A stretch of DNA of 64,000 nt from Gemmatimonadales bacterium (GCA_036004525.1 DASYRJ010000033.1:6266-70265); one strand, 5' to 3'; shown: positions 45,950 to 61,386, numbered from the stretch's first letter. Made by a program: numbers and translations. Notes: generated by a model from the letters alone, not told the origin.

Positions 45950-46393
45950 ATGAACCCGCACCATGCTTCCCGCCTGGCCGTCGCCGGCGCGCTCGCCTGC
46001 GGGGGGACGGCCGTGCCGCCGCCGGGGAGTTCCACGCCCGGGACCGCCGCCGTGACCACGATCGTCCCGAGCGAGACCGATGCGCGGGTACCGCGGGTGG
46101 AAGAGATGCTGCGCGGCGTGCCGGGTCTCGAGGTGACGCGGCTGCCGAACGGGAACTATCAGCTGCGCATCCGGGGCCCGCGCAGCATCAGAGGGAACCC
46201 GGGCGACGACAATCCGTTGCTCGTGATCGACGGGATTCCGATCCCGAACGAATCCATCGGCAGCATGCTGGCCGACCTGGCGCCGCGCGACGTCGCGCGG
46301 ATCGAGGTGCTCAAGGATGCATCGGCGACGAGTATGTACGGATCACGCGGCGCCAACGGCGTGATCGTGATTACCACCAAGCGGGCACGATAG
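45950..46393 (+). CDS. Stand-alone TonB-dependent-receptor plug-fragment lipoprotein 2 (paralog)
   Basis: Lipobox GALAC. LRIRGPRSIRGNPGDDNPLLVIDGIP..VLKDASATSMYGSRGANGVIVITTKR. Confidence 0.65.
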   Translation: MNPHHASRLAVAGALACGGTAVPPPGSSTPGTAAVTTIVPSETDARVPRVEEMLRGVPGLEVTRLPNGNYQLRIRGPRSIRGNPGDDNPLLVIDGIPIPNESIGSMLADLAPRDVARIEVLKDASATSMYGSRGANGVIVITTKRAR

Positions 46394-46404: not shown

Positions 46405-47001
46405 ATGACGTCTCGCATCAGTCGGCTGGTGGCGGCCGCGGCGCTGCTCTGCGCCGCTCCCGCGGCGGCACAGGGGGCCGGCGGGGCCGGCGCCGTCGAA
46501 GTCGGCGCGTTCGCGCGCCGCACGCATTTCGACAACAGCCTGGGGATGAAGAGCACCATCGGGGTGGGTGGATGGGCATCGGTCGCCATCCGGCCCGGGC
46601 TCGCGTTCGAGCTGGACCTCTCCCACACGTCCGCCGACTACAAGAGCGGGAGCGGCTCGGCGACCTACACGCCGATGCACGCCCGGCTGGTCGGGACGTT
46701 CACGGCCGGCCCACGGGTGGAGGCCGCGTTGGGCGGGGGGTACGTGCACAACTCGTACGGGGGCTCGCTGGACGCGAGCGACGGCGGCTTGTCCGCGCTC
46801 CTGGGCCTGCGCTACCAGGCGACCAACCGGGTGTGGATGCGGCTCGGCCTCGACCTCGACGTCATGTTCCACCCGTCGAGCGACAGTCCATTCGTGTTTT
46901 ACACGGGTAACTGGGCCCTCACGCTCGGCGCCGCCGCGCGGTTGCACGGCGGCGGAGGCGGGGGCGCCGCGTCGTCACAGTCGGTAGGTCTGCTTCGCTA
47001 G
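46405..47001 (+). CDS. Small outer-membrane beta-barrel protein (OmpA-barrel/porin-like)
   Basis: Signal peptide LLCAAPAAAQG. Alternating amphipathic strands (AFELDLSHT, ALLGLRYQA, WMRLGLDLDVMF, WALTLGAAARL). The 3' end overlaps convergent uxaC by 27 nt. Confidence 0.55.
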   Translation: MTSRISRLVAAAALLCAAPAAAQGAGGAGAVEVGAFARRTHFDNSLGMKSTIGVGGWASVAIRPGLAFELDLSHTSADYKSGSGSATYTPMHARLVGTFTAGPRVEAALGGGYVHNSYGGSLDASDGGLSALLGLRYQATNRVWMRLGLDLDVMFHPSSDSPFVFYTGNWALTLGAAARLHGGGGGGAASSQSVGLLR

Positions 47002-48432
47002 ATCGTACGCGAGCGCGCGCGCCATCGGGCGCGCGTCGCTCTCGTCGATCACGTGGCGCGCCACCAGCCCCGCCAGATAGTTGGCATCCATGCGCCGCGC
47101 CAGGTCGTGCCGCGCCGGGATCGAGCAAAACGCCCGCGTGTCGTCGTTGAACCCCGCCGTCTTGTAGATCCCCGCCGTCTCCGTCGTCCGCTCGCGGAAC
47201 CGCCGCATTCCTTCCATCGAATCGAAGAACCACCACGGCGGCCCGAGCCGGACCGCCGGATAATGCCCCGCGAGCGGCGCCAGCTCCCGGCTGTAGGTGG
47301 ACTCATCGAGGGTGAAGAGCACCAGGGAGAGCCGCGCGTCGTTGCCGTAGGCGTTCAGCAGCGGGCGCAGGTTGCGCGTGAATTCGGTGGCGACGGGCAT
47401 GTCGCCGCCCCGGTCGGGACCGAACCGCTCGAACACCAGGCGGTTGTGGTCGCGCAGCGCGCCGGCATGGATCTGCATCACCAACCCGTCCTCCAGCGAC
47501 AGCCGGGCCATCTCCATGAGGAGATGCGCCGTGAAGCGGCGCTCGTCGGCGGGCGTGACTTCGCCCTGGCACGCCAGGTGAAACAGGCGCTCCGCCTCCT
47601 CGCCCCCCCCCTCGAGGGCCCCGGTAAACGGCTCGAGCACGGCGTGGTCGGTCGCCGTGGCGCCCAGGCTCTTGAAATAGGCCCGGCGATCGGCCAGCGC
47701 CCGCACGAACCCGACGTAGTCGCGCACCGGCTCACCGTCGGCACGCCCCAGGGCGTCCAGCGCTTTGGACCAGCCGCGCGCCGCGATCCGAAACAGGGCG
47801 TCCGGCCGGAAGGTCGGGACCACGCGCCCCTTCCATCCCGATTCGCGGATCGCCCGGTGGTGGTCGAGCATGTCGCTCGCCGCATCGGTCGTGGCCAACA
47901 CCTCGATGTTGAAGCGCTCGAACAGGGCCCGCGGGCGGAACTCGGGCGAGCGGAGCTTCTCCCGGATTTCGTCGTAGATGCGCGGCGCCGTTTCGCCCGA
48001 CAACCGGGTGCCGATGCCGAAGACCTCGTGCAGCTCGTAATCGAGCCAGGCGCCGGTCGGCGTGCCGTGAAACAGGTGGTAATGGTCCGCGAAGCGCTGC
48101 CACACCTTGCAGGGATCGGCCTCCACCGGGGCGCCGTCGCGGCGCGGGACGCCCAGCGCCTCGAGCGGGACGCCGTGCGCGTACAACAGTCTCAGGATGT
48201 AGTGGTCGGGCTGAACGATGAGCGCCGCCGGCTCGGGGAAGGGTGTGTCCTCCGCCAGGATGCGGGGATCGACGTGGCCGTGCGGGGAGATGATAGGCAG
48301 GCCGCGCGTCTCCTCGTACAGCGCGCGCGCGACCCGACGAACCGAAGGGTCGGGATCGAAGCAGCGATCCTCGGAGAGGACGCCGGCGTCTAGACGGCCG
48401 GCGTCCAGCCCGGAGCGTACTCGCGTTGCCAC
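46975..48432 (-). CDS. uxaC: Uronate (glucuronate) isomerase
   Basis: RRVARALYEETRGLPIISPHGHVDP.., IVQPDHYILRLL, and family-typical length. The start is uncertain: GTG 48432 or CTG 48408, with no ATG near the conserved N-terminus. Confidence 0.8.
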   Translation of the reverse strand: MATRVRSGLDAGRLDAGVLSEDRCFDPDPSVRRVARALYEETRGLPIISPHGHVDPRILAEDTPFPEPAALIVQPDHYILRLLYAHGVPLEALGVPRRDGAPVEADPCKVWQRFADHYHLFHGTPTGAWLDYELHEVFGIGTRLSGETAPRIYDEIREKLRSPEFRPRALFERFNIEVLATTDAASDMLDHHRAIRESGWKGRVVPTFRPDALFRIAARGWSKALDALGRADGEPVRDYVGFVRALADRRAYFKSLGATATDHAVLEPFTGALEGGGEEAERLFHLACQGEVTPADERRFTAHLLMEMARLSLEDGLVMQIHAGALRDHNRLVFERFGPDRGGDMPVATEFTRNLRPLLNAYGNDARLSLVLFTLDESTYSRELAPLAGHYPAVRLGPPWWFFDSMEGMRRFRERTTETAGIYKTAGFNDDTRAFCSIPARHDLARRMDANYLAGLVARHVIDESDARPMARALAYDLAKQTYRL

Positions 48433-49709
48433 AAGGCCATGGCCTGTTCGTCGCCCTGAATGTGCCCGGACTGGGGGTCGGTGCGGAGCGCCCGGCCGGT
48501 CCACTGCGCGATATTGCCGAGGTGACACAGCAGCACGCTCTTCGCCCCCTCCGCGATCGGCTGGGTCACCGGCGCGCCCGTGCGGATCGCCTCGACAAAA
48601 TTCGCGATGTGGAGCGTGGTGAGCAGGTCGTCCCCGCTCGGCGCCAGGGGATCGGCGACCGCGGGCGCGATCGATTCCTTCACGACCTTGCGGTCCAGAT
48701 CGTACACCGTGTAGCCGTCCTGGTCCATCACGACCGTCCCGGTCGTCCCGTGCACGATGGTGCCGCGGCCGCGATTCTCCGTGGGGAACGGATTGCAGCT
48801 CAAGCCCTGCCACACGATCGCACGCTGACCCTCGAACTCGAAGCCGGCTTCCTGGGTATCGGTGAACTCCCAATCGTCTTCGAAATGATACCGACCGCCC
48901 ACCGACGTCACGCGCACGGGGTAGTCGACACCCAGGGCCCAGCGGGCGACGTCGATCTCGTGGGTCCCGTTGTTGCAGATCTCGCCGGTGCCCCAGCGCC
49001 GGAACCAATGCCAGTTGTAGTGGATGACGTTGTCCCGGTACGGCGTGCGGGGCGCCGGTCCCTGCCACAGCTCGTAGTCTAGGCCCGACGGGACGGGCAC
49101 GGCCTTGCCGCGGCCGATCGAGCGGCGCCGGTTCGCGTACCAGGCACGGGCCAGATAGGGACGTCCGATCGCCCCTTCCCGGACAGCCTGGACCGCCTCC
49201 TGGGCGCGGGGGGAAGACCGGCGCTGCGTGCCCATCTGGACCACGCGCTTGGCCTTGCGCTGCGCCTCCACCAGCAGCTCGCCTTCGCGCGGATTGTGGC
49301 CGCAGGGCTTCTCGACGTACACGTGTTTGCCCGCCGAGAGCGCCAGGATCGCCGCGGGCGCGTGCCAATGGTCGGGGGCGGCGATCACCAGCGCGTCGAT
49401 CGTCTTGTCCTCGAGGGCGCGGCGGAAGTCGACCAGCCCCTTGGGGGGGGCGCCTTTCGCCTGGGCTGTGCCGACGGCCGCCACGCCCTTGGCGAGCACC
49501 TGCGCATCCACGTCGCACACACAGGCGACTTCGGTGTTGGGCGTCTTGGCGAACACGCGGGCGAGGACGGTGCCGCGGCCGTTCAGGCCCATGACCGCGA
49601 CGACCACCTTCTCGGCCGGCGAGCCGCGGAGCGCGAGCAAGGGTGCGCGGGCGGCCGCGAGCCCGAGGCCCGTCGCCGAGACGGTCTTCACGAAGTGGCG
49701 GCGCTTCAC
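48390..49709 (-). CDS. Gfo/Idh/MocA oxidoreductase with Tat signal (periplasmic)
   Basis: VKRRHFVKTVSATGLGLAAA twin-arginine leader. VAVMGLNGRG Rossmann motif. YVEKPCGH. Confidence 0.85.
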   Translation of the reverse strand: MKRRHFVKTVSATGLGLAAARAPLLALRGSPAEKVVVAVMGLNGRGTVLARVFAKTPNTEVACVCDVDAQVLAKGVAAVGTAQAKGAPPKGLVDFRRALEDKTIDALVIAAPDHWHAPAAILALSAGKHVYVEKPCGHNPREGELLVEAQRKAKRVVQMGTQRRSSPRAQEAVQAVREGAIGRPYLARAWYANRRRSIGRGKAVPVPSGLDYELWQGPAPRTPYRDNVIHYNWHWFRRWGTGEICNNGTHEIDVARWALGVDYPVRVTSVGGRYHFEDDWEFTDTQEAGFEFEGQRAIVWQGLSCNPFPTENRGRGTIVHGTTGTVVMDQDGYTVYDLDRKVVKESIAPAVADPLAPSGDDLLTTLHIANFVEAIRTGAPVTQPIAEGAKSVLLCHLGNIAQWTGRALRTDPQSGHIQGDEQAMALWQREYAPGWTPAV

Positions 49710-50476
49710 AGCGGTCTCACTTTGATGTTGCGGAAATAGACCTCATCGCCGTGATCCTGCAAGACGATGTGTCCCCGGCGGCGGTCGGCAAAGCCGGGGA
49801 TCGAGCGGTACTTGCTCTTCGCGAGGAGGGAGTCCATGCGCGCGGTGCCCAAATCGAACTCGACGATCTTCCGGCCGTTGAGCCAGTGCTCCCCGTGGTT
49901 GCCGCGGAAGATGACGGCGGCCCGGTTCCATTCGCCCACGGGACGCAGCTGCTTCGCGTCGCTCGGCGCGATCAGGTCGTACAACGCGCCGGAGCGGTGG
50001 GTGGGCAGCTTCCCGTCCTCGTGCCGATCGTCGTCGATCATCTGGTACTCGAACCCCAGGGCCGAGTGGTTCGGAGCGATGGCGCCGCGGGCGACGGCCG
50101 TGGGGGTCATCGCGCCGTTCTGGGCGATCGACATTTCCTCGGAGACGTTGTACTTGACGCCGCTGTTCGCCCCCGGCGTAACCTTCCACTCCCAGGTCAG
50201 CTCGAGGTCTCCGAACGTCTCCACGGTCATCAGGTCGCCGCCGTTGAGGGGTCGCCCGTCTGCGACCCGGGGGATGTCGCCGCTCGCGATCTTCTTGATG
50301 GCGCCGTCCACCACGACCCAGTGCCCGGTCGGCACGGTGTCGTAGCCCAGCCCGCGCCAGCCGGCCAGCGTGCGTCCATCGAACAACAGCTGCCAGCCGG
50401 CGGCACGTTCGGGGGCGGTCAGTTCATTGGGCCCGCTCGTTTGGAAAGCGAGGACGAGGATGAGTGGCGTGATCAT
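49706..50476 (-). CDS. DUF1080 / 3-keto-disaccharide hydrolase-like protein (secreted)
   Basis: ATGA overlap with the MFS stop. GWQLLFDGRTLAGWRG, FGDLELTWEWKV, ANSGVKY, HIVLQDHGDEVYFRNIKV. Confidence 0.8.
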   Translation of the reverse strand: MITPLILVLAFQTSGPNELTAPERAAGWQLLFDGRTLAGWRGLGYDTVPTGHWVVVDGAIKKIASGDIPRVADGRPLNGGDLMTVETFGDLELTWEWKVTPGANSGVKYNVSEEMSIAQNGAMTPTAVARGAIAPNHSALGFEYQMIDDDRHEDGKLPTHRSGALYDLIAPSDAKQLRPVGEWNRAAVIFRGNHGEHWLNGRKIVEFDLGTARMDSLLAKSKYRSIPGFADRRRGHIVLQDHGDEVYFRNIKVRPL

Positions 50477-51768
50477 GGCGTCTCCTTCAGCCGGGCGGGC
50501 TCGAGCCTCGGGGCGAGAATGTGGATGATCGTCCAGGCGGTCACGTAGGCGAGCCCGCAGACAATGAAGATGGGTGTGTAGTCGTTCCCGTTGGCGTCGA
50601 GGATGCGGCCGGTGACGCGCTGGAACGCCCAGCCGCCGATGCCGCCGGCGAACGCCCCGATACCGACCACCGAGCCCACCGCCGCGCGCGGGAACATGTC
50701 GCTGGCCAGCGTATAGACGTTGGCGGACCACGCCTGGTGCGCCGCGGCGGCGACGCTGACGATCAGGACGGCGGTCCACATGCTCCCCGCCAGGGGCGCC
50801 AGGACCGTGGGCAATATCAGGAGCGCCATGGCGAGCATGGCAGTTTTGCGCGCCCGGTTGACCGTCCAGCCCCGCTTGATCAGCGCGCTCGAGAGCCACC
50901 CACCGCCCACCGAGCCTACGTCCGCGATCACATACACGACGATGAGCGGCAGCGCGACCTGCGCCAACTTGATGCCGTACTTGGCGTCCAGAAACTTCGG
51001 CAGCCAGTACAGATAGAACCACCACACCGGATCGGCCAGCAGCTTCCCGACGGCGAACGCCCAGGTCTGGCGATGGGTCAGGAGGTGGGCCCAGGGCACG
51101 CCGGCCACCGGCGCGTCCGGCGGATCGCTCAGGATGTGCGCGCGCTCGGCCTCCGACACGCGCGGATGCTGCTCGGGGTTCCGGTACACGGCCAGCCAGA
51201 AGACCAGCCACAGGAAGCCGAGTGAGCCCGTCGCGATGAAGGCCCACTGCCAGCCCCAGGTCAGCGCGATCCAGGGGACGATGAGCGGCGTGAGGATCGC
51301 GCCCGTGTTCGTGCCGGCGTTGAAGATGCCGGTCGCGAGCGCCCGTTCGCGCTTCGGGAACCACTCGGCGACGGTCTTGATCGCGCCGGGAAAATTGGCC
51401 GACTCGGCGACGCCCAGGAACGCCCGCGCGGCGGAGAACGCGGCGGTGGTGCGGGCAAAGGCGTGCGCCATGGCCGCCAGGCTCCACGCGACGACCGCCG
51501 CCGCGAACCCGCGCCGCACGCCGATCCGGTCGAACAGCCGCCCGGCCGCGAGGAAGGCGAACGCGTAGGGCAGGCTGAACCACGACACGACGTCGCCGTA
51601 CGCGGCCTCGGACCACCCGAGTTCGCGTTGCAGCGTCGGCGCCAGAATACCGAGCACCTGCCGGTCCACGTAATTGATCGTGGTGACGACGAACAGCAGG
51701 GCGCAGATCGTCCAGCGGTACCCGAAGAGGCGGGTACGGACCGGCGCCGGAGCGGCGGTCCACGTCAC
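50473..51768 (-). CDS. MFS transporter, hexuronate transporter (ExuT)-like
   Basis: 12 predicted TM segments. INYVDRQVLG. GRLFDRIGVRRG loop motif. Confidence 0.8.
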   Translation of the reverse strand: MTWTAAPAPVRTRLFGYRWTICALLFVVTTINYVDRQVLGILAPTLQRELGWSEAAYGDVVSWFSLPYAFAFLAAGRLFDRIGVRRGFAAAVVAWSLAAMAHAFARTTAAFSAARAFLGVAESANFPGAIKTVAEWFPKRERALATGIFNAGTNTGAILTPLIVPWIALTWGWQWAFIATGSLGFLWLVFWLAVYRNPEQHPRVSEAERAHILSDPPDAPVAGVPWAHLLTHRQTWAFAVGKLLADPVWWFYLYWLPKFLDAKYGIKLAQVALPLIVVYVIADVGSVGGGWLSSALIKRGWTVNRARKTAMLAMALLILPTVLAPLAGSMWTAVLIVSVAAAAHQAWSANVYTLASDMFPRAAVGSVVGIGAFAGGIGGWAFQRVTGRILDANGNDYTPIFIVCGLAYVTAWTIIHILAPRLEPARLKETP

Positions 51769-53327
51769 AACGTCACGCCTTCCTTCCAGATGGCGATCTC
51801 GCGATAGCCGTGCTTCTCGTTGTTGGCCAGCTCCCGTCCCGAGGCCACGTCGAGGATCAATGCGAACAGGTCATCGGCGAGCCGGTCCATGGTGGCCGAG
51901 CCGTCGAGCAGCGCCCCGGCGTTGAGATCGATCCAGTGCGGTTTCTTCTCGGCGATCGCGGTGTTGGACGAGATCTTGAGCGTCGGCACCGGAAAGCCGA
52001 GCGGGGTGCCACGGCCCGTCGTGAAGAGGAGCAGCGTCGCGCCGCTCGCGACCAGCGCCGTCGACGACACGCCGTCGTTGCCCGGCGACTCGAGCAGCGC
52101 CAACCCTCCCGCCCGCATCACCGCCGGCTCGCCGTAGCGCAGTACGTGAGTCACCGGCGCCCGGCCGCCCTTCTGGATCGCGCCCAGCGATTTCTCCTCG
52201 AGCGTGGTCAGGCCCCCTGCGACGTTGCCCGGCGACGGGTTCTCGTAGATCGGCTGCCCGTGGCGCAGGAAGTATCCCTTGAAATCGTTGACCAGCGCGA
52301 CGATGCCCTCGAACACGCGCTCATCGGCCGCCCGGTTCATCAGCACCCGTTCGGCGCCGAACATCTCCGGGACCTCGGTGAGGATCACGCCGCCGCCCAG
52401 CGCCGTCAGCCGGTCGGCGATGCGCCCGACGAGGGGATTGGCCGTGATGCCGCTCAACCCGTCCGACCCGCCGCACTTGTGGCCGAGGATCAGATCGGCG
52501 GCGGAACACTCCTCGCGCCGGTCGCGCTCCATCACGGCGACGAGCTGCCCCAGGGCCTCGAGCCCCGCCTCGACTTCGTCCGTGACGTCCTGCGAGTTGA
52601 AGAACCGGAGCCGCTCGCGCTCGACGTTCCCCGCGAGGTGGACCAGCTCGTCCATCTGATTGTTCTCGCAGCCGAGGCCGAGTACCAGGACCGCGCCGGC
52701 GTTCGGGTGGCGCATCAGGCCGGCCAGGGCGCGCTGCGTGTTGCGGAGATCGTCGCCGAGCTGGCCGCAGCCGTAGGGGTGCGAGAAGCTGTACACCCCG
52801 TCGATCCGGCTGCCGAACAGCGCCGCGCCCTCGCGGGCGATCCGCTCCGCCGCATGGTTCACGCAGCCGACGGTGTTGAGGATCCACACCTCGTTGCGCG
52901 TGCCCACGCGGCCGTTGGCGCGGCGGTACCCCATGAACGTCGCCCTCACCCCCTGGCCCCCGCTCCCCTTCGCTGCGCTCAGGGCAGGCTCTTCGGGAGA
53001 GGGGGAACGTGGGGGTGAGGACGGCTCGTATGTGTACTCCAGCACCCCTTCCAGGCACGTCTTGAGATTGTGCGAATGGACCCAGGCGCCGGGGGCGATC
53101 GCGGCGGTGGCGGCCCCGATCGGGAAGCCGTACTTGACGACCACTTCGCCCCGCGCGAGCGCGCGCAGCGCGACCTTATGGCCGGCGGGGACGTCCTCCA
53201 GGAGGGGTAACGCGCGCGTTGCCCCTGCCCCCTCGACCACGACCTCGCTCCCCGCGGTGAGCGCCCGAATCGCCACCGCGACGTCGTCCGCCGGGTGGAT
53301 TTTGAGCGCCTGTGCGGCCACGCTCAC
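51765..53327 (-). CDS. uxaA: Altronate/galactarate dehydratase family (UxaA-like) with an extra repeat-derived linker segment
   Basis: SAF N-domain (IHPADDVAVAI, AGHKVAL). TFMGYRRANGRVGTRNEVWI, GCVN, HPYGCGQ, LGCE. Insert SSPPRSPSPEEPALSAAKGSGGQGVRA. Confidence 0.85.
   Translation of the reverse strand: MSVAAQALKIHPADDVAVAIRALTAGSEVVVEGAGATRALPLLEDVPAGHKVALRALARGEVVVKYGFPIGAATAAIAPGAWVHSHNLKTCLEGVLEYTYEPSSPPRSPSPEEPALSAAKGSGGQGVRATFMGYRRANGRVGTRNEVWILNTVGCVNHAAERIAREGAALFGSRIDGVYSFSHPYGCGQLGDDLRNTQRALAGLMRHPNAGAVLVLGLGCENNQMDELVHLAGNVERERLRFFNSQDVTDEVEAGLEALGQLVAVMERDRREECSAADLILGHKCGGSDGLSGITANPLVGRIADRLTALGGGVILTEVPEMFGAERVLMNRAADERVFEGIVALVNDFKGYFLRHGQPIYENPSPGNVAGGLTTLEEKSLGAIQKGGRAPVTHVLRYGEPAVMRAGGLALLESPGNDGVSSTALVASGATLLLFTTGRGTPLGFPVPTLKISSNTAIAEKKPHWIDLNAGALLDGSATMDRLADDLFALILDVASGRELANNEKHGYREIAIWKEGVTL
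52944..53020. repeat. GC-rich nested palindromic repeat, copy 1 (inside uxaA)
   Basis: CCTCACCCCC-TGG-CCCCCGCTCCC-[27 nt]-GGGAGAGGGGG-AACGT-GGGGGTGAGG. Confidence 0.8.
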
Positions 53328-54379
53328 CGGGTGAAGTCCCGGTAGTACGTCTCGATCTGGTCCGGTGTGGCGGTGCGGGAAAGGATCAGCACACGATAGC
53401 GGAACGTGGTGGACTGTCCCCGCGCGAGCCGGAAGTTCAGCTCCTCCTTCCCGTTCGTGAACACCTTGCGGCCGAGCGGGTTGGCGGCGAACAGACCGTA
53501 GCCGCGCGCGTGCCAGTACGTCGGGAACCCGACATTCTGCGGGTGGTCCAGGATGGCGAGGGTCACGGGCTCACCCTCCACGGTGCCGGTGAGCATCGTC
53601 CAGCGACCGCGCGTGCCCCACACGGAGTCGCCCTCGAGGCCTTCGGAGCTGCGATAGCGGCCGGTGACGCCGTCGTTGTTGAGCATCGGCACCGTCGTGG
53701 CGTGGCCGGCGGCGTCGGTAAACACCTCGGGCGTATTGGACGGCTGCTCGAGCGCCCGCGCCACGCGCATGCCGATCAGCCCTTCCTTGTTGTCGGTGAA
53801 GGTCACGGGACCTCCGACGGCCGTGAGCGTCGTGATGCGGTCGACCTCGCGCAGGCCTTCGGCCGCACGGAAGATGAAGCGCGTGTCCTCGCGCAGCAGC
53901 GCCTTGCCCTGGGAGTCGACCCACTCCGCCGTCACGTCGAGCGTGCCTTCTCCCTCACCGCTGTGGACGCGGCGCACCGAGCGCTGGACGATGGTCCCCA
54001 TCTTGTCCGCGCGCGCCGGGGGGATGGCGTCGGAGTTGTTCCAGAAATCGAGCCCGCCGACGTCCCCGTGGTTGAACCACAGACCGACTTGATGCGGGTG
54101 ATCCACGCGCTCGCCGGGCCTGGGCTCGAGGGGCCAGCCGCGCGTGACCACCACCCCAGACGCCGCCCGCAGCGGGTAGAGCGTGGGCTTCTTGAGCGTC
54201 GTCGGCCAGATGTACGACGTAAAGGGTTTGCCGTCGACCGTGACGTCGACGCGGCGGTCGGCCTCGCGTGCCACGACGTCTACGCGAGGCTGCCTCACCC
54301 CCTGACCCCCTCTCGACTCCGTGGAGAGGGGGAACAAGGGGACGAGAGTCACGCACAGCAGCAACCAAGCCTTGCGCAT
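53324..54379 (-). CDS. PmoA-family / DUF6807-like secreted protein
   Basis: Signal peptide. DHPHQVGLWFNHGDVGGLDFWN motif. It neighbours Gfo/Idh/MocA genes, as I recall is typical of this family. Confidence 0.6.
   Translation of the reverse strand: MRKAWLLLCVTLVPLFPLSTESRGGQGVRQPRVDVVAREADRRVDVTVDGKPFTSYIWPTTLKKPTLYPLRAASGVVVTRGWPLEPRPGERVDHPHQVGLWFNHGDVGGLDFWNNSDAIPPARADKMGTIVQRSVRRVHSGEGEGTLDVTAEWVDSQGKALLREDTRFIFRAAEGLREVDRITTLTAVGGPVTFTDNKEGLIGMRVARALEQPSNTPEVFTDAAGHATTVPMLNNDGVTGRYRSSEGLEGDSVWGTRGRWTMLTGTVEGEPVTLAILDHPQNVGFPTYWHARGYGLFAANPLGRKVFTNGKEELNFRLARGQSTTFRYRVLILSRTATPDQIETYYRDFTR
54293..54348. repeat. GC-rich nested palindromic repeat, copy 2 (inside the PmoA-like gene, signal-peptide region)
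   Basis: CCTCACCCCC-TGA-CCCCCTCTC-[9 nt]-GAGAGGGGG-AACAA-GGGGACGAGAG. Confidence 0.75.
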
Positions 54380-54386
54380 GTGTGCC

Positions 54387-55727
54387 TCAACCCATCACGA
54401 TGTCTTGCTTGCCGTCGTCGAACGTAACCTTCCGTCCGGTGTGGATCGCGGCGACCGTCATGCACAGCGCCACGGAATGACTGTAGCCGGCGTCAATGGA
54501 CGCGTTGGGCTGCTTGCGCGAGCGCACGCACTCCATCCAGTTCCGCACGTTGGCGGTGGTGGACGAGTCGCCCCCCGTGTTCGCCGCGGTCTCCGTCGGC
54601 GCCACCTCGGACAGCTTCATCGTGGGCAGCTGATTGGCCTTCATGCCCATCTCCGCCGCGTAGCGCTCGGTGAGCCCGCCGTTGGGGGAGATCTCGTTCG
54701 TGTCGAGGTTCAGCATGCCGGCGTTCGAGTAGTACAGCTCCTTGGTGCCGCCGGCCCCGTTGGTCATGCGCGACGCGTACACGACCTGGAAGCCCTTTGA
54801 GGGATCGTCCAGCGGCCCGTACTCGAACACGATCGTGGCGGTGTCCCAGTTCTTGCGGCCGTCCTTCCACAGGTAGACGCCGCCGTTGGCCACGACGCTG
54901 CGGGGATGCGGGAAGCCCGTGAACCAGTGCACGGTGTCGATCTGGTGCACCATCCACTGGTCGGGGATGCCGGACGAGTACGGCCAGAAGAGCCGGTACT
55001 CGAGGTACTTGCGCGGATCCCACGCCTCGTACGGCATGTAGGCGAGGAAGCGCTTCCAATCGGTGTCCGTTTCCTTGATGGTGGAGACGAGCTGGGGCCG
55101 GCGCCAGCGGCCCGGCTGGTTCACGTTCCACGTCATCTCGGCCATGACGATATCGCCGAACTTGCCCGACCGGATGAACTCGTTGGCGGCCTGGTAATTG
55201 GCGGCGCTGCGGCGCTGGGTGCCGATCTGCACGACGCGGTCGGACTTCTTCACCGCGTCGCGGATCGCGACGGCCTGGTCCATGCTGTGCGCCAGCGGCT
55301 TCTCGATGTAGGCGTCCTTCCCGGCCCCGATCGCCTCGACGCCGTGGTAGGCGTGCAGGAAATCGGGGGTCGAGATCATCACGGCATCGGTCAGCTTCGC
55401 GGCGTACATCTCCTCGTTGTTGCGGAACGCGCGCGGCTTCGCGCCCATCACGCGCTCGATCTCCGCTACGCCCTCGTCGCGCCGCCGGTTCCAGATGTCC
55501 GACACGGCGACGATCTCGAAGTTGAGCGCGGGGCCGGCCGCCTTGAACGCGGGGAGCAGGGCCTGCCGGAACCGGTCGGAGAAGCCGACGATCCCGACCC
55601 GCACGCGGTCGTTCGCGCCCAGGATCCTGGCATAACCGGCGGCGGGCAGCGAGCTGAGGGCGGCGCCGGCGACGCCGGCTGCGGTACGCTTCACGAAGTC
55701 GCGCCGGGGCATTTTGCGTTTGGACAT
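54387..55727 (-). CDS. Gfo/Idh/MocA oxidoreductase with Tat signal (periplasmic)
   Basis: MPRRDFVKRTAAGVAGAAL leader. VGIVGFSDRF. YIEKPLAH. Confidence 0.85.
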   Translation of the reverse strand: MSKRKMPRRDFVKRTAAGVAGAALSSLPAAGYARILGANDRVRVGIVGFSDRFRQALLPAFKAAGPALNFEIVAVSDIWNRRRDEGVAEIERVMGAKPRAFRNNEEMYAAKLTDAVMISTPDFLHAYHGVEAIGAGKDAYIEKPLAHSMDQAVAIRDAVKKSDRVVQIGTQRRSAANYQAANEFIRSGKFGDIVMAEMTWNVNQPGRWRRPQLVSTIKETDTDWKRFLAYMPYEAWDPRKYLEYRLFWPYSSGIPDQWMVHQIDTVHWFTGFPHPRSVVANGGVYLWKDGRKNWDTATIVFEYGPLDDPSKGFQVVYASRMTNGAGGTKELYYSNAGMLNLDTNEISPNGGLTERYAAEMGMKANQLPTMKLSEVAPTETAANTGGDSSTTANVRNWMECVRSRKQPNASIDAGYSHSVALCMTVAAIHTGRKVTFDDGKQDIVMG

Positions 55728-55764
55728 CTCCCCTCCTCTATGAGTAGTGGACGCTGCATGTCGG

Positions 55765-56643
55765 TCAACCCGCCGCTCCCGCCCTGCGGCGGCCGGCGGC
55801 GGCGAGCCCGGCGATCACGCCGCGCATGTAGGCGAACGACCGCTGCATTCCCGGCGACGGGTCGTCGGCGTCGATCTCGTACTCGAGGTTGACGTACCCC
55901 GCGTAGCGGATCGCCTGGAGCTGCTGGAAGATCGCGGCGATGGGCATCGCGCCCTCGCCGACGATGCACTGGCTCCCTTTCGCGGTCAGGTCGCGCAGAT
56001 CCTTGGCGTGCATGTCCAGCAGCCGGGGCCCGGCATCCGCGATCGCACGCACGACGTCGGTGCCCGTCCGCGCGGTGTGACCGATGTCGATGCACAACCC
56101 CATGCGGGCGTCCATCGTCCGGACCTGCTTCAGCACATCGTACGGGGACGGGAAGCGCTTGTCCTCCGGACCGTGGTTGTGAATCGCGACCTTGATGTCG
56201 TACTCCCGGGCGAGCCGCTCGATGCGTGGCAGGATGGGGGGGTCCGCCGTCGCGACGATGAGCGGCATCCCGGCGCCCCTGGCGTAGTCGAAGTACTTCC
56301 GCACGCCCGCATCGGTATCCTGGTCGAAGGTGATCGTGCCGCCGCCCACGATCTCGAGGCCGGCGGCCTCGATCTCGCGCCGCGCGGCGGCCAGCTCGTC
56401 CGCCGACAGCTCGTACGGCAGGTGCACGGACTTGAGGTTGATATACCGCGTCCCGAGCGCTTTGACCATCTCGATGGCCTGCGCGCGCGTGAACTTGCGG
56501 AGCGAGTAGCTGGCCACGCCGAGCTGGATCTCCCCGCCACGTTCCCCCTCTCCACGTAGTGGAGAGGGGGCCAGGGGGTGAGGCACGAGGACCGCCGCCA
56601 CGCCCGCGGCGCTCGTCGCCAGAAAGGTCCGGCGGTCGGGCAC
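55765..56643 (-). CDS. Xylose-isomerase-like TIM-barrel protein (sugar phosphate isomerase/epimerase family) with Tat signal
   Basis: GTG start gives VPDRRTFLATSAAGVAAV. IQLGVASYSL, VAIHNHG, CIDIGH, VNLEYE. Confidence 0.8.
   Translation of the reverse strand: MPDRRTFLATSAAGVAAVLVPHPLAPSPLRGEGERGGEIQLGVASYSLRKFTRAQAIEMVKALGTRYINLKSVHLPYELSADELAAARREIEAAGLEIVGGGTITFDQDTDAGVRKYFDYARGAGMPLIVATADPPILPRIERLAREYDIKVAIHNHGPEDKRFPSPYDVLKQVRTMDARMGLCIDIGHTARTGTDVVRAIADAGPRLLDMHAKDLRDLTAKGSQCIVGEGAMPIAAIFQQLQAIRYAGYVNLEYEIDADDPSPGMQRSFAYMRGVIAGLAAAGRRRAGAAG
56530..56583. repeat. GC-rich nested palindromic repeat, copy 3 (inside the TIM-barrel gene just after the Tat signal; opposite orientation)
   Basis: The reverse complement reads CCTCACCCCC-TGG-CCCCCTCTCC-[7 nt]-GGAGAGGGGG-AACGT-GGCGGGGAG. 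Confidence 0.75.
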
Positions 56644-56645
56644 GC

Positions 56646-58292
56646 TCAGTATCCCGGGTTCTGCGGGTAGACGTTGCTCGTCCGGTCGATCTGTCGCTGC
56701 GGGATCGGCCGCAGCACGTGGAACGGCTTGATACTGTTCGAGCCCGTGGACTCCATCCAGTTGTATGCCTTCACGCGGGCCAGCAGGGTGTGTGTGCGCA
56801 CCAGGTCGAACCATCGCTGCATCTCGCCCGCCAGCTCCCGCGCCCGCTCGTTGAGAACCTCGGAGAGGGTGAACTGGGCAGGCGTCAACTCCATCTCCAG
56901 CTCGTGCCCGGGAATAGCGGCGCGCCGCCGCACCGCGTTGATGTACGGGAGCCCCTCCGCCGCCCGGCCGTCCCGCAGGAGCGCTTCGGCGGCGATCAAG
57001 TAGGTATCGGCCAGCCGCGCCACGAAGAAGTCACGAGAGCCGCGCTCGTCGTTGACGCTGAGGCGGAAGGGGTCGTGAAACTTGTTCAGCGACGGGAATA
57101 TCTTGTTGAAATACGACTTCGGGGTGTAGACGCGGTACGGCTTGGTTCGTGCCAATACCGTGTCGGCATCCGTCGGCGAGATGTAGACCGCGGTGTCGCC
57201 GAGCCGGAACTTGGGGACGCCCAGCGAGTCTCTCGGGATCGTCGCTGCGTTGTTGCTGTACCAGACGCGCGTGAACTGCGCGTCGTAGCGCGAGTCCTTG
57301 GTCCGGTCGTACAGGTTCAAGAAGAAGGTCGTGGGACGGAAGCGTTTGAACGGGCGGCCGTTGGCGATGTCGCGCGTCATCCCGGGGAGCACGTCGTATT
57401 CCGCCAGGAAGTACAGGTGCCCCTTGTTCCCGTTCCCCGTGGTGAGGGGATCGGGGGTGAACTGGACCGACCAGATGACCTCCCCGTTCCGCTCGTTGGC
57501 GAAGTCGAACACGTCCTTGAACCGCGACAACAAGGTGTACTGCCCGGAGTTGATGACCCGCTGCGCGTAATCGGCGGCGTTCGCGAAGTCGCCGGCCGCG
57601 AGCTTCGCGGCTTCGTCGGCGGTGGAGTCGGCGTCGCGGATGCGCGTCAAGTACACCTTGGCCAGCAGGTGCTGCGCCGCGCCCTTCGTCGCCCGCCCGT
57701 AGTCCTTCGCGACCGCCGGCAGGTTGGCCTCCGCATAGCGCAGGTCGCTGATGATCGCCTCGTACACCGAGTCGACGGGCGCCCGGGCCGCCTCGGTGCT
57801 GGGCGTGAGCGTCGGGTGCAGGCTGAGCGTTATGGGCCCGAACATCTGCACCAGGTCGAAGTAATAGAGGGCTCGCAAGAAGCGCAATTCGCCCACGCGC
57901 TGGGCCTTGAGCGTCGAATCGATCTGGACGAGCGGGGCCTGGTCGATCGCCGTGTTGGCGGTGTTGATCGCCCGATAGAAGTCGCCCCAGGTGTCCTGGA
58001 AGAACGACTCGGTGGGGTTCAACCCCGCCGTGTAATCGTTGATCACCTTGTGGCTCCCGTCGGACCCCTTGGTGTAGATGTCGGTCCCGAACTCGGTCAC
58101 CGTGAAGCCGCGCTCCTGCGCGTAGAAGCTGCGCAGCGGCTCGTAGGTGGCGTTGACGAGCGCGTTGAACGCCGCGGGCGTGCCGTACGCGCCGGGCGTG
58201 AGTCCGCTGATGGGGTCTTCATTCAGGTCCACGCAGCCGGGAAGGGCGGCCAGCAGTGCGGCGCCCAGCATCATGGCAGTGTGCTTGGTCAT
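56646..58292 (-). CDS. SusD/RagB family lipoprotein
   Basis: Lipobox LAALPGC. FLRALYYFDLVQMFGPI. C-terminal QNPGY. Confidence 0.85.
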   Translation of the reverse strand: MTKHTAMMLGAALLAALPGCVDLNEDPISGLTPGAYGTPAAFNALVNATYEPLRSFYAQERGFTVTEFGTDIYTKGSDGSHKVINDYTAGLNPTESFFQDTWGDFYRAINTANTAIDQAPLVQIDSTLKAQRVGELRFLRALYYFDLVQMFGPITLSLHPTLTPSTEAARAPVDSVYEAIISDLRYAEANLPAVAKDYGRATKGAAQHLLAKVYLTRIRDADSTADEAAKLAAGDFANAADYAQRVINSGQYTLLSRFKDVFDFANERNGEVIWSVQFTPDPLTTGNGNKGHLYFLAEYDVLPGMTRDIANGRPFKRFRPTTFFLNLYDRTKDSRYDAQFTRVWYSNNAATIPRDSLGVPKFRLGDTAVYISPTDADTVLARTKPYRVYTPKSYFNKIFPSLNKFHDPFRLSVNDERGSRDFFVARLADTYLIAAEALLRDGRAAEGLPYINAVRRRAAIPGHELEMELTPAQFTLSEVLNERARELAGEMQRWFDLVRTHTLLARVKAYNWMESTGSNSIKPFHVLRPIPQRQIDRTSNVYPQNPGY

Positions 58293-58308
58293 GGCTGTCT
58301 CTCCGCCT

Positions 58309-61300
58309 CTAGATGCCCAGGGTGACGCCCATCATCACCGTCCGGTAGCTCGGCACGCCGGGATTGGTGCGGGACTCGGGGTCCAGCCCCTTGAACTTGG
58401 TGAACAGGAACGGATCGAGCGCCGTCGCGTAGATCCGCAAGGACCGGGCACGAAACAGGCCTGCGCGGCCATCGGGCACGGTATACCCGACGGTGATGTT
58501 GCGGACACGGACGAACGATCCTTCCTCGTAGCCCCGCGCGTCGCCGTACAGCGGGAATTCCTGGTCGGCGTTGGGTCGGGGATCGGTGTTGGACGGGTTG
58601 GTCGGGGTCCAGTAGTCCGTGAGGATGTTGTTGTAACGGCCGAAGAGCTGGTTCTGGCCGGTGCGGAACTCGTCGTGCACCATGAAGTCCAGCCGCGCGA
58701 CCGCCATGACCGACAGGTCGATCCCCTTCCAGTCGAGCCGGCTCGTCAGGCTCCCCGTCCAGCGGGGGAAGGGCGTGCCGAGAATGACGCGGTCCGCGCC
58801 GTCGATCTTGCCGTCGCCGCGCCACTGTCCGGTGACGCTGTCGTAGACCGTCGGCTGGTCGACCACGCGAATCTGTCCGGGTTTCTGCGCGTACCCCAGG
58901 GCGGTGAGCGAGTCCTGATGCTGCCAAATGCCGGCGAACTGGTAGTCGTAGTACACGTCGATCGGCTGACCCACGAACCAGCCGTTGCCGATGTCGCGCT
59001 GCAAGCCGCTCGACAGCCGGACGATCCGGTTGCGATTCGAGGCCCCGTTGACGTCGACGTTCCAGCGCAGCCCATGCCAGTCCTGGACGAGCAGCGTGGA
59101 GAAGGCCACCTCGATGCCGGTGTTGCGCGTCGCCCCGACGTTCTCGAGAATGCTCGAATAGCCGGTGGTCGGCGGGAGCTGCCGCTCCATGATCAGGTCG
59201 CGGGTGTCGGCGCGGTAGTAGTCCACCGATCCCGACAGGCGGTTGTTCAGCGCCGTGAACTCGAGCCCCACGTCCATTTGGCCGGTCCGCTCCCACTTCA
59301 AGTTCGGGTTGGGCAGCCGGCCGGGCCGGTAGCCGACGGCCGCCTGACCGGCGAAGGAGTAGATCGTCCGGGTCAATGAGCCCTCGGTCTGATAGGGACT
59401 GATCGACGTGTTTCCGGTGACCCCGTAGCTGGCGCGCAGCTTCAGGTCGGAGAAGATCCGGGTGCGCCGCACGAGGTCTTCCTCGGACAGGCGCCACGCG
59501 ACGGCGACCGAGGGAAACAGCCCGTACTTCCGCCCGGGCGCCAAGCGCGAGGATCCGTCCCGGCGCGTGGTCACGGTAAACAGATAGCGGTCTTTGAGCG
59601 TGTAGTTGACGCGCGCCATCACGGACAGGAGTGACCACTCCTCCAGGCTGCTGTAGGGGGGGTCGACGTTGGTGGCCGACCCGATGTCGTAGAACAGTTG
59701 ATGCTCGTTGGCCACCCCGGTGACGTGCACCGTGTCGTCTTCGGTTCGCTGCTGCTGGATACTGTACAGGAGCGTGGTCGTGAGCCGATGGTCGTTGCCG
59801 AGCCGTCCGTGGAAGGTGAGGATATTGTCCAGCGTGTAGGCGAACGTCCGACTTTGCCACAATCCCGCGTCGGCGCCGCTCCCCTGCATCGCCTGCGTCT
59901 CGGCGCCGCGGAACACGCCCCGGCGATAGAACGTGAGGTCGGGGCCGAAGTTCAGGCGCCAGTTCAGCGCCGGCGCCAGATCGTAGTCGGCGAACAGCGT
60001 GCCGAACACCCGGGTGCGCTGGCGTTCGTCCATCCAATTCCGAATGTCGGAGAGCGGGTTGACCCGCTGCCCGTCGGGCGTGGGCTTGAACAGGATCTTG
60101 CCGGTGCTGTCGTAGGGCACGCCCAGGGGATTGTTGCCGAGCGCCTCACTGTAGACGCCATCGCCGCGGCCCAGGTTCTGGTCGGTGCGGATCAGGGACG
60201 TCGAGCTGCCGACCCGCAGCCGCGGGTTCAGCTCGTGGTCGAAGTTCAGGCGCATCGACCGCCGCCTGAAGTCCTGCGCGGTGATGATCCCATCCTGCTG
60301 CAGCTGGCCCAGCGTGAGGGCGAATCGGGTCCGCTCGTCGCCGCCCGTCACGCCCACCTCGTTGCTGACCTGCATGCCCTCCCGCAGCACGAGGCTCTGC
60401 CAGTCGGTCGAGAGCCCCGCCCGCATCGCCGCCAGCTCCTGGGGCCAGAACAGCTTGGCGTCGCCCGAGTCACAGACCGCGACGGTGCTCGGACACTTGT
60501 AGTTTCCCGTGGTCCGGTTCGCTTCCCGCTTGTGCTCGGCGAACTCCGGGCCGTTCATCATCCGGACGCGCCGCACCGGCTCCTGATAGCCGGCGTACGT
60601 GTCGTAGGTGATGTTGGTCGTCCCCGCCCGGCCCTGCCGGCTGGTGATGAGCACCACGCCGTTCGCCCCGCGCGAGCCGTAGATCGCCGTGGCCGACGCG
60701 TCCTTCAGCACCTCGATCGACTCGATGTCCCTCGGATTCAGATCGCCGATGCCCCCGGACATCGGAATGCCGTCGAGCACGTAGAGCGGATCGTTCGACG
60801 CGTTGAGGGACCGCGTCCCCCGCAGGCGGACGCGCACGCCGTCGCCGGGCTTGTTGCCGGTCGTCACGATGTCCACGCCGGGCACGCGCCCTTTGATCGC
60901 CTCGATGGCGTTCACCTTGGGCACCTCGTGCACGTCGTTCCCACCCACCGACGCCACCGATCCCGTGATGTCGCGGCGCACCTGCGTGCCGTAGCCGATG
61001 ACGACCACTTCCTGCAGCGCGACGGCCAGCTGCTGCAGACGGAAGTCCGCGGTCACGGTCTGCCCCGCCGTCACGACCACGTTCGGGACTTGCCAGAGTC
61101 CGTAGCCGATGAGTTGGGCCTGCACACGGTATGTCCCGGACGGCACGCCGCGGATCGTGTACCGGCCGTCAGGGCCGGCCTCCGCACCGAGCTTCGTGCC
61201 GACCACGGCTACCTGAGCGCCCTGCAGCGGCGTCCCGGTGGCCTGGTCCTGCACCATCCCGGTAATCGTGCCCCTGGCACCTGTGGTGTCCTGAGCGAGG

Positions 61301-61386
61301 GCGGTCTGGATTGGTACCAGAGCGAGCAGCGGTAAGAGAAGCGAGAGACGGAACGGAGCGACTGGGGACGACGTGGAGGCGGACAT
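58309..61386 (-). CDS. SusC/RagA-type TonB-dependent outer-membrane transporter
   Basis: Start at MSASTSS... Signal peptide ..IQTALAQD. GTITGMVQDQATGTPLQGAQV. VRLRGTRSLNASNDPLYVLDGIP..VLKDASATAIYGSRGANGVVLITSRQG. C-terminus MMGVTLGI. Confidence 0.9.
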   Translation of the reverse strand: MSASTSSPVAPFRLSLLLPLLALVPIQTALAQDTTGARGTITGMVQDQATGTPLQGAQVAVVGTKLGAEAGPDGRYTIRGVPSGTYRVQAQLIGYGLWQVPNVVVTAGQTVTADFRLQQLAVALQEVVVIGYGTQVRRDITGSVASVGGNDVHEVPKVNAIEAIKGRVPGVDIVTTGNKPGDGVRVRLRGTRSLNASNDPLYVLDGIPMSGGIGDLNPRDIESIEVLKDASATAIYGSRGANGVVLITSRQGRAGTTNITYDTYAGYQEPVRRVRMMNGPEFAEHKREANRTTGNYKCPSTVAVCDSGDAKLFWPQELAAMRAGLSTDWQSLVLREGMQVSNEVGVTGGDERTRFALTLGQLQQDGIITAQDFRRRSMRLNFDHELNPRLRVGSSTSLIRTDQNLGRGDGVYSEALGNNPLGVPYDSTGKILFKPTPDGQRVNPLSDIRNWMDERQRTRVFGTLFADYDLAPALNWRLNFGPDLTFYRRGVFRGAETQAMQGSGADAGLWQSRTFAYTLDNILTFHGRLGNDHRLTTTLLYSIQQQRTEDDTVHVTGVANEHQLFYDIGSATNVDPPYSSLEEWSLLSVMARVNYTLKDRYLFTVTTRRDGSSRLAPGRKYGLFPSVAVAWRLSEEDLVRRTRIFSDLKLRASYGVTGNTSISPYQTEGSLTRTIYSFAGQAAVGYRPGRLPNPNLKWERTGQMDVGLEFTALNNRLSGSVDYYRADTRDLIMERQLPPTTGYSSILENVGATRNTGIEVAFSTLLVQDWHGLRWNVDVNGASNRNRIVRLSSGLQRDIGNGWFVGQPIDVYYDYQFAGIWQHQDSLTALGYAQKPGQIRVVDQPTVYDSVTGQWRGDGKIDGADRVILGTPFPRWTGSLTSRLDWKGIDLSVMAVARLDFMVHDEFRTGQNQLFGRYNNILTDYWTPTNPSNTDPRPNADQEFPLYGDARGYEEGSFVRVRNITVGYTVPDGRAGLFRARSLRIYATALDPFLFTKFKGLDPESRTNPGVPSYRTVMMGVTLGI

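Follow-up and report, generated by a model that had tools for sequence, protein, structure and literature searches.

A SusC/SusD operon with no glycoside hydrolase

How might a bacterium depolymerise a glycan with an operon that encodes a SusC/SusD pair and no glycoside hydrolase (GH)? The question is raised by a 64,000-nt stretch of DNA from a metagenome-assembled genome of a Gemmatimonadales bacterium (GCA_036004525.1, DASYRJ010000033.1:6266-70265; hereafter "the window"; G+C ~70%), in which ten co-oriented genes lie on the minus strand between 46975 and 61386, or 61428 with an alternative start of the first gene. A preliminary description of the window gave their order as SusC, SusD, a TIM (triosephosphate isomerase) barrel with a twin-arginine translocation (Tat) signal, a Tat-exported Gfo/Idh/MocA dehydrogenase (Gfo1), a "PmoA-like" protein now classed as DUF6807, UxaA, a major facilitator superfamily (MFS) transporter, DUF1080, a second Tat-exported dehydrogenase (Gfo2) and UxaC. 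Gene calling from six-frame open reading frames (ORFs) with a third-position G+C filter recovered the same order, and assignment with Pfam and NCBIfam bore out every named family; export signals were read directly from N-termini. Three of the operon gene products are exact matches of HEV8303944, HEV8303947 and HEV8303948. The preliminary description was also correct that no GH is encoded inside the operon, but a polysaccharide lyase (PL) adjoins the operon in the window, and the locus extends further than had been described, into a divergent unit encoding this PL38-type lyase, a small subunit with a Tat signal and a GMC dehydrogenase.

We propose, with moderate confidence, that the locus is a SusC/SusD polysaccharide-utilisation locus (PUL) of soil Gemmatimonadales whose periplasmic enzymes would use keto-sugar chemistry instead of Koshland glycosidases. 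The first gene encodes a SusC/RagA-type TonB-dependent outer-membrane transporter (58309..61386, minus strand; alternative ATG at 61428) that scores 737 bits against TIGR04056 (cutoff 368), matches the SusC signature, and has CarboxypepD_reg and Plug domains and a signal peptide that can be read from the sequence. The second encodes a SusD-family outer-membrane lipoprotein (56646..58292, minus) with PF07980 and PF14322 domains and the lipobox LPGC. This adjoining pair, with its 16-nt gap and in the same orientation as carbohydrate-active genes, is what identifies a SusC/SusD PUL.

The proposed chemistry has a precedent. As recently as 2024, Nasseri et al. (bioRxiv 10.1101/2024.03.25.586180) established the oxidise-eliminate-hydrate route in gut Bacteroidales and predicted that distant variants with other architectures would exist. 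Their BT2156-2160 and Alistipes AL1-5 systems hydrolyse alpha- and beta-glycosides, thioglycosides and acarbose. C3 is oxidised by a Tat-exported Gfo/Idh/MocA enzyme with tightly bound NAD; beta-anomers lose the aglycone by elimination on AL1/BT1, a TIM-barrel "sugar phosphate isomerase"; with alpha-anomers the elimination is carried out by the DUF1080 protein AL2/BT2, which also hydrates the glycal; and the 3-keto-sugar is re-reduced by the same dehydrogenase. The authors noted that 3-ketoglucose drifts to the furanose form, which limits turnover. A second cluster in the same study, P2B11, performs the same chemistry on glucuronides. Genetic evidence of a related kind came from Price et al. 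(2022), who linked LacABC, which consists of a GMC flavoprotein, a small subunit and a cytochrome, to DUF1080 proteins and, in Caulobacter, also to the "sugar epimerases", reductase and transporter encoded nearby.

Applied to the window, this chemistry would begin with the entry of uronate-containing oligosaccharides, most likely carrying galacturonate, via SusC/SusD. An exported dehydrogenase would then oxidise the non-reducing-end sugar at C3, the candidates being Gfo1 and Gfo2, which may be exported by Tat with NAD bound, and the GMC flavoenzyme, which may be exported on its Tat small subunit. With the C2 proton acidified, the aglycone would be eliminated and the product hydrated by the metal-dependent TIM barrel, DUF1080 and probably DUF6807. 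A Gfo enzyme would reduce the 3-keto-monosaccharide back with its bound NADH, so that the cycle would be redox-neutral. The free uronate would be imported by the ExuT-like MFS protein and converted to 2-keto-3-deoxygluconate via UxaC, UxaB (encoded elsewhere) and UxaA. The gene content, the export signals, the conservation and the homology of families and active sites are read from sequence; the substrate, the regiochemistry of oxidation, the roles of the TIM barrel and DUF6807, and which protein performs which step are what we infer.

DUF1080 and the two dehydrogenases

Evidence for keto-sugar chemistry comes from the DUF1080 protein (49706..50476, minus; PF06439, 152 bits), which has a short Sec-type signal and belongs to the family typified by BT2157, whose characterised members are 3-keto-glycoside lyase/hydratases. 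It matches Protein Data Bank (PDB) entry 4JQT at 7.5e-54 and BT2 itself (8TDA) at 6e-35. Alignment to 8TDA shows that seven of the eight BT2 active-site residues are kept (N134, E164, Q166, Y190, K245, Q273 and H275); the remaining one, E103, falls in an ambiguous loop of the alignment. The protein thus has the channel residues expected of a lyase/hydratase of the BT2 kind.

Gfo1 (54387..55727, minus; PF01408; Tat motif RRDFVK), a predicted NAD-dependent sugar dehydrogenase, and Gfo2 (48390..49709, minus; Tat motif RRHFVK) are dehydrogenases of the Gfo/Idh/MocA family that share 27% identity. For both, the nearest solved relatives are the dehydrogenases described by Nasseri et al., 8TDF and 8TDH: the best PDB matches of Gfo1 are 8TDH, 8TDF and DgpA at ~1e-12, and that of Gfo2 is 8TDF at 1.8e-20. 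Gfo2 can be regarded as remotely related to dehydrogenases such as BT2158 and AL3.

The Gfo/Idh/MocA fold is also that of GH109 enzymes, and this raises the alternative that Gfo1, Gfo2 or both are self-contained NAD-dependent glycosidases of the GH109/GH4 type, with oxidation, elimination and re-reduction in one active site and the other proteins as accessories. The GH109 chains 6T2B and 2IXA are indeed among the PDB matches, but they match weakly (E 7e-6 to 4e-4, versus 1e-12 to 2e-20 for the AL3-type dehydrogenases), and neither protein could be placed in GH109. Moreover, the co-occurrence and fusions of TIM, DUF1080 and DUF6807 proteins described below argue for a multi-enzyme route. We consider such a single-enzyme mechanism very unlikely.

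A TIM barrel from an uncharacterised clade

The third gene of the operon (55765..56643, minus) encodes a xylose-isomerase-like TIM barrel (PF01261, AP_endonuc_2) with a TAT_signal match and an RRTFL motif. In the preliminary description it was likened to the sugar-phosphate-isomerase-like lyases, a parallel that did not hold at the level of the clade. Its closest relatives are three uncharacterised Parabacteroides structures, 3LMZ (1e-40), followed by 3P6L and 4KW2. AL1/BT1 gave no sequence or profile match to it even at E<=10, and when its AlphaFold model (pLDDT 83) was searched with Foldseek, AL1 ranked 37th with a TM score of ~0.6, level with ketose 3-epimerases. Sequence, profile and fold searches together speak against both the AL1/BT1 and the DgpB/CarB types.

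The weak sequence and profile relatives of the TIM barrel are YcjR (a 3-keto-D-glucoside 4-epimerase), IolE and subunits of C-glycoside deglycosidases. Each of these removes a proton beside a sugar carbonyl, which is in keeping with the general chemistry of the proposed route. The protein also has invariant residues, H155-x-H157, D186-x-x-H189, H212 and E254, in the order and spacing of the AL1 site, which has a His/Asp/His metal site and a catalytic Glu, as judged by eye, not from an alignment. It is therefore best described as a candidate keto-sugar lyase, isomerase or epimerase; the lyase role in the proposed route is the one we infer.

DUF6807 as a candidate component of the pathway

DUF6807, formerly "PmoA", is encoded directly after Gfo1 (53324..54379, minus) with a Sec signal peptide, and its score of 273 bits against PF14100 (cutoff 27) places it well within a family of ~3,400 clusters at 50% identity. 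Literature searches gave no function for the DUF6807/PmoA family and returned one bare mention of the family number; no PDB relative of the protein is detectable by sequence. Evidence for a role came instead from its genomic neighbourhoods and fusions. Using a 14-sequence alignment, 80 genome loci were collected from Gemmatimonadota, Acidobacteriota, Bacteroidota and Ignavibacteria. In 27 of them, the gene immediately upstream of DUF6807 on the same strand is of the Gfo1 type, and within 10 kb there is a Gfo gene in 44 and a DUF1080 gene in 22; UxaC (four loci), the TIM barrel (four) and the lyase (two) are found nearby much less often. Fusions of DUF1080 and DUF6807 exist in both orders and in several distinct clusters. 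One of these, P0067 on contig L088, is a fusion of the window's own orthologues (77% identity for DUF6807, 74% for DUF1080) and directly follows TIM-Gfo1.

The AlphaFold2 model of DUF6807 (pLDDT 95) has remote Foldseek matches, at TM ~0.38, to galactose mutarotases and to beta-sandwich domains of GH36, GH94, OpgD, PL17 and PL26 enzymes. A number of its His, Asp, Arg and Trp residues vary hardly or not at all, as would be expected of a sugar-binding or catalytic site. DUF6807 is thus a candidate extra component of the keto-sugar pathway. Two hypotheses for its role can be put forward: it may be a lyase/hydratase acting with or instead of DUF1080, or it may be an isomerase of ring forms or anomers that returns the 3-keto-sugar to NADH-loaded Gfo1. 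A more far-reaching proposal is that DUF6807 is catalytic together with Gfo1 and DUF1080, and that SusC-SusD-TIM-Gfo1-DUF6807, with the GMC enzyme, would be a complete glycosidase-free machine for depolymerising galacturonate-containing glycans in soil Gemmatimonadota, with related cassettes in Acidobacteriota and Bacteroidota. This proposal is tentative, and we regard it as somewhat doubtful.

In other organisms DUF6807 also has other fusion partners (P0163, P0264, P0127 and P0224): a seven-bladed-propeller lactonase, SMP-30/gluconolactonase, a metallo-beta-lactamase-fold protein and peptidase S51.

The uronate end of the operon

The preliminary description had the products of the operon feed a UxaC/UxaA uronate route, and this link is upheld. 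UxaC, the glucuronate/galacturonate isomerase (46975..48432, minus; no signal), scores 515 bits against the equivalog model NF002794, above its cutoff of 387. UxaA (51765..53327, minus) is a cytoplasmic D-altronate dehydratase homologue with SAF, GD_AH_second and GD_AH_C domains and no signal; along the whole protein it shares 50% identity with the altronate dehydratase of E. coli, versus 33% with GarD. The transporter (50473..51768, minus) belongs to the anion:cation symporter family, with a TIGR00893 score of 263 bits that lies under the cutoff of 395, and is closer to ExuT (30% identity, 195 bits) than to GarP (27%, 155 bits). Altronate is specific to the galacturonate branch of uronate catabolism, so the monosaccharide released is most likely galacturonate; uxaB would then be encoded elsewhere.

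The sole NCBIfam match of the UxaA protein is to galactarate dehydratase. A galactarate route, which this match had brought into consideration, was weakened by the direct comparison with the two E. coli enzymes. At residues ~102-128, between the SAF and second domains, the protein carries a Pro/Ser-rich insertion (PSSPPRSPSPEEPALSAAKGSGGQG) that is longer than its counterpart in E. coli UxaA and aligns poorly with it.

The divergent unit and conservation across soil Gemmatimonadota

The divergent unit starts ~260 nt upstream of SusC (190 nt from the first in-frame GTG). Its first gene (61646..62884, plus) encodes a lipoprotein of the PL38 type, a predicted polyuronate (alginate or glucuronan) lyase that scores 321 bits against PF05426 and matches PDB 3NFV at 2e-93 and BoPL38 (the 8BDQ/9FHT series) at 2.4e-67. 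A preprint on BoPL38 describes its complexes (9FHT-9FHX) and names Y91, H243 and Y298 as key residues; all three catalytic positions (BoPL38 numbering) are kept in the lyase alignment, which supports the assignment to PL38. PL38 enzymes cut alginate and beta-1,4-glucuronan, and the lyase would add access to polymers of the glucuronan or alginate type. The second gene (62889..63470, plus) encodes a Gluconate_2-dh3-type small subunit (PF13618, 114 bits) with a Tat signal (MIDRREALRR) and a lipobox; it is the GMC enzyme's "hitch-hiker" partner. The third (63467..64000, plus), whose start overlaps the small-subunit stop as GTGA, encodes a GMC FAD-dependent sugar dehydrogenase that is cut by the window end, leaving the N-terminus. 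This fragment is 88% identical to a full-length orthologue on locus L005; in the PDB, that orthologue is closest to the large subunits of FAD-glucose dehydrogenase and of the membrane-bound fructose dehydrogenase. Those enzymes are periplasmic flavo-dehydrogenases exported with a Tat small subunit.

The gene order is not a matter of chance. Six loci from genomes or long contigs have it, as do ~20 further metagenome contigs, which are among the longer of the 80 that a metagenome scan returned. Soil metagenome locus L085, whose DUF6807 product (P0025) shares 83% identity with that of the window, matches the window's architecture exactly, down to the junction lengths and with the divergent lyase, small-subunit and GMC genes in place. 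In four other Gemmatimonadota loci (L005, L006, L086 and L087), SusC-SusD-TIM-Gfo1-DUF6807 and, further on, DUF1080-Gfo2-UxaC are kept, together with a divergent small subunit-GMC pair. The middle of these four operons varies. UxaA is absent in L005, and the MFS gene has either moved to the divergent unit or been replaced by a second small subunit-GMC pair (L005, 11058-13360; L006, 12522-14806; L087, 12612-14896). In L086, a cytochrome c gene follows UxaC (16175-16828). The second GMC pairs and this cytochrome suggest that electrons from periplasmic sugar oxidation can pass to the respiratory chain.

The 3' end of the operon shortens in other relatives, stopping after Gfo2 in L097, after MFS in L089 and L104, and after UxaA in L098 and L102; in each of these five the same convergent Plug-only gene comes next. 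The invariant core therefore consists of the divergent GMC and small-subunit genes together with SusC-SusD-TIM-Gfo1-DUF6807. UxaA comes next after this core in all loci save L005 (= L127) and L130. MFS and DUF1080-Gfo2-UxaC are accessory, since close relatives lack them. The lyase is accessory as well: among the orthologous loci covering the upstream side it occurs only in the window and L085, so the idea that it is the key depolymerase was dropped as a general explanation for these loci. No GH was found among the Pfam-annotated genes of L085-L087, and L006 has no clear GH, just a sub-threshold GHL10 match in a truncated ORF.

A TIM-Gfo-DUF6807-MFS cassette was also found on a 111-kb metagenome contig (L001, 593-20043). 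One flank of this cassette encodes a 924-aa DUF1080-pyrroloquinoline quinone (PQQ)-cytochrome c fusion, ThuA and GH95, and the other encodes a GH29 fucosidase together with what looks like a full set of enzymes for oxidative L-fucose catabolism.

Comparison with characterised systems

The locus most resembles BT2156-BT2160/AL1-AL5 (Nasseri et al. 2024; Liou et al. 2020; Liu et al. 2021). Both have a Tat-exported Gfo/Idh/MocA enzyme, DUF1080 with its active-site residues kept and a xylose-isomerase-like TIM barrel, all three periplasmic (by prediction in the window), and no classical glycosidase, and in both DUF1080 lies directly upstream of a Tat-exported Gfo gene, so that DUF1080-Gfo2 mirrors BT2157-BT2158. 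The differences are that in the window the enzymes sit in a SusC/SusD operon of Gemmatimonadota, the Gfo proteins are remote and the TIM barrel is from another clade; that DUF6807, a GMC flavo-dehydrogenase and uronate catabolic genes are added; and that there is neither a cytosolic BT2159-type Gfo nor a DUF6377 regulator. The P2B11 glucuronide-3-dehydrogenase cluster offers a parallel for a keto-sugar route on uronides and shows that the chemistry tolerates a C6 carboxylate. However, it comes from a Gram-positive source and has two TIM "isomerases" and no DUF1080, and the match, 8TDI to Gfo2 at E 2.5e-5, is marginal.

Caulobacter crescentus LacABC with its DUF1080 proteins (Arellano et al. 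2010; Price et al. 2022) is similar in combining a GMC enzyme and small subunit, DUF1080, epimerases, a reductase and a transporter with periplasmic oxidation. It differs in its cytochrome c subunit, of which the window shows none (L086 has a cytochrome c gene after UxaC), and in that the cluster here is coupled to SusC/SusD and UxaA/UxaC; the GMC enzyme is likened to LacA by type. The C-glycoside systems DgpA/DgpBC and CarA/CarBC, with which the preliminary description had suggested a comparison, likewise use C3 oxidation by a Gfo or GMC enzyme followed by cleavage by a metal-dependent TIM barrel. The likeness does not go beyond the superfamily: the profile matches of the TIM barrel to 7BVR, 7XRF and 9M3A are marginal (E 0.014-0.05), the protein does not belong with DgpB/CarB, and there is no gene for a small C subunit and no hint of a C-glycoside. 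Finally, the locus shares SusC/SusD, a PL-family lyase (in the window), an ExuT-like transporter, UxaC and UxaA with the canonical pectin and alginate PULs of Bacteroidota, but it lacks GH28, GH105 and GH88, PL1, PL9 and PL10, the carbohydrate esterases CE8 and CE12, KduI, KduD and DehR, and uxaB, and has exported oxidoreductases in their place.

Weighing the alternatives

The preliminary description had proposed oxidation-assisted glycoside cleavage, and the proposal stands in part. In its favour, the enzyme families match the set of Nasseri et al., DUF1080 keeps nearly all of the BT2 site, 8TDF and 8TDH are the nearest solved dehydrogenases, the best NCBIfam model of Gfo2 is that of BT_2158, and the operon has a conserved GMC neighbour of the LacAB type. 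Several observations weigh against it. Against NF058561, the model for the BT_2158 glycoside 3-dehydrogenase, Gfo2 scores 124 bits and Gfo1 72 bits, far under the cutoff of 750, so both are homologues and not equivalogs of BT_2158, and both resemble inositol, levoglucosan and other dehydrogenases nearly as well. The TIM barrel does not appear to be of the AL1/BT1 type and is no nearer the AL1 lyase than it is to ketose epimerases. DUF1080-Gfo2, the module most like BT2157-BT2158, is absent from the close relatives L089, L098, L102 and L104, and neither it nor UxaC or MFS belongs to the core. A lyase adjoins the operon, and the glycan taken up via SusC/SusD might be cut by enzymes from other loci. 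The lactonase fusions of DUF6807 hint at a sugar-lactone chemistry that oxidation-assisted cleavage leaves unexplained, and uxaB was not found in the window. Lastly, the L001 cassette lies beside GH29 and GH95 fucosidases and L-fucose catabolic genes, so the cassette is perhaps broad in specificity and the uronate link perhaps specific to this lineage.

These points leave room for other explanations of the locus. The enzymes may interconvert free monosaccharides or oxidised sugars, by epimerising, isomerising or reducing them before uptake, with depolymerisation left to the lyase or to glycosidases encoded elsewhere. The structural neighbours of the TIM barrel, which are mostly ketose 3-epimerases and isomerases, would fit such a role, as would the resemblance of the DUF6807 model to galactose mutarotase, a monosaccharide enzyme; the lyase beside the operon in the window and the monosaccharide (fucose) catabolic genes beside the L001 cassette point the same way. 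However, among the orthologous loci covering the upstream side the lyase is limited to the window and L085, and the search of the orthologous loci turned up no clear GH gene. What SusC/SusD systems take up is oligosaccharides, which would call for some cleavage of glycosidic bonds in the periplasm, and DUF1080 enzymes with the residues kept here are 3-keto-glycoside lyase/hydratases. We judge remodelling of free sugars unlikely, but consider it a serious contender. The fusions of DUF6807 to two kinds of lactonase, together with its mutarotase-like model, could instead be explained by periplasmic C1 oxidation or dismutation like that of glucose-fructose oxidoreductase (GFOR), in which aldoses or uronates would be converted to lactones and then to aldonates or aldarates, imported by the MFS protein and dehydrated by a UxaA/GarD-family enzyme, with DUF6807 as a mutarotase that provides the required anomer. 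This would agree with the inclusion of the C1-oxidising FAD-glucose dehydrogenase among the nearest solved relatives of the GMC enzyme, with the galactarate dehydratase match of the UxaA protein and with the galactonate/glucarate transporter family to which the MFS protein belongs. Yet the dehydratase is much closer to E. coli altronate dehydratase than to GarD, the MFS protein is nearer ExuT than GarP, UxaC, which implies an isomerase route, belongs to the full operon, the locus encodes no lactonase, and both DUF1080 and the link to SusC/SusD would go unexplained; C1 oxidation is accordingly improbable. It could also be argued that the locus is a mosaic of unrelated adjacent genes, with genome compaction accounting for the tight junctions. 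Close relatives do differ in the 3' half of the operon, and a scan of the locus for promoters and terminators resolved no signal at 70% G+C. However, the core order and junction lengths are kept across many contigs whose products are 64-94% identical, the adjacency of Gfo1 and DUF6807 spans phyla, and domain fusions tie the components together, so that a chance assembly is hardly credible.

Oxidation-assisted cleavage, the reading we favour, is a pathway type that is already known. What is new in the window is that the pathway would be housed in a SusC/SusD locus of Gemmatimonadota and coupled to galacturonate catabolism, that the TIM barrel is from a different clade, that a GMC enzyme is a conserved partner and, most of all, that DUF6807 is linked to it. 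If the reading is true, the route would be extended to SusC/SusD import, to acidic (uronate) glycans and to an abundant, little-studied soil phylum. PULs without a CAZy-listed glycosidase could then still be degradative, which matters for pipelines that define PULs by their GH and PL content. The pairing of DUF6807 with a Tat-exported Gfo protein and its fusions to DUF1080 give this family a concrete, testable hypothesis, and the finding would be weightier if DUF6807 proved to be a new catalytic component.

Junctions and flanking genes

Translational coupling of the ten genes had been argued from five 4-nt start/stop overlaps; four were found, with GTGA at DUF6807/UxaA, UxaA/MFS and DUF1080/Gfo2 and ATGA at MFS/DUF1080. 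The remaining gaps, described earlier as 2-37 nt, measure 16 nt (SusC-SusD), 2, 37 and 7 nt. The uxaC junction had been said to depend on an uncertain start, and the start analysis agrees: orthologues begin with TTG or GTG right at the Gfo2 stop, whereas the window (48330-48470, minus) has no canonical uxaC start codon at that point, and the nearest in-frame canonical start, the GTG at 48432, would add ~15 residues and create a 43-nt overlap with Gfo2. A non-canonical start, a local sequence error and a genuine extension are all possible.

Convergent with uxaC are two tandem Plug-domain-only ORFs (45445-45936, plus, 163 aa; 45950-46393, plus, 147 aa) and a small gene for an outer-membrane beta-barrel protein (46405-47001, plus; PF13505). 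All orthologous loci have a Plug-only gene, encoding a Plug domain without its barrel, at the 3' end of the operon, whichever operon gene comes last (for example, L085 17275-18278, L003 8377-8874 and L087 18494-19195). Beyond the Plug-only ORFs of the window lie a second SusC/SusD pair (40082-43612 and 43297-45426, plus) and, divergent beside it, a GH27 alpha-galactosidase gene (39121-40392, minus), with an alcohol dehydrogenase and epimerase/GNAT genes at 36.5-39 kb. In L085, DnaJ directly adjoins the Plug gene, and the second SusC/SusD locus and the genes at 36.5-39 kb thus look like an insertion in the window's lineage.

The carbohydrate island takes up the window from ~39 kb onwards. The genes at 1-37 kb have housekeeping and signalling roles (ribonucleotide reductase, pyruvate kinase, DnaX, DnaJ, and Ser/Thr kinases with FHA proteins), and no uxaB, kdgK or eda is among them. 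Within this region, and unrelated to the operon, positions 2597-12024 hold genes for two Ser/Thr protein kinases and two FHA proteins, together with two ORFs that have no Pfam match; one of the FHA proteins is fused to a trypsin-like protease and the other to double zinc ribbons.

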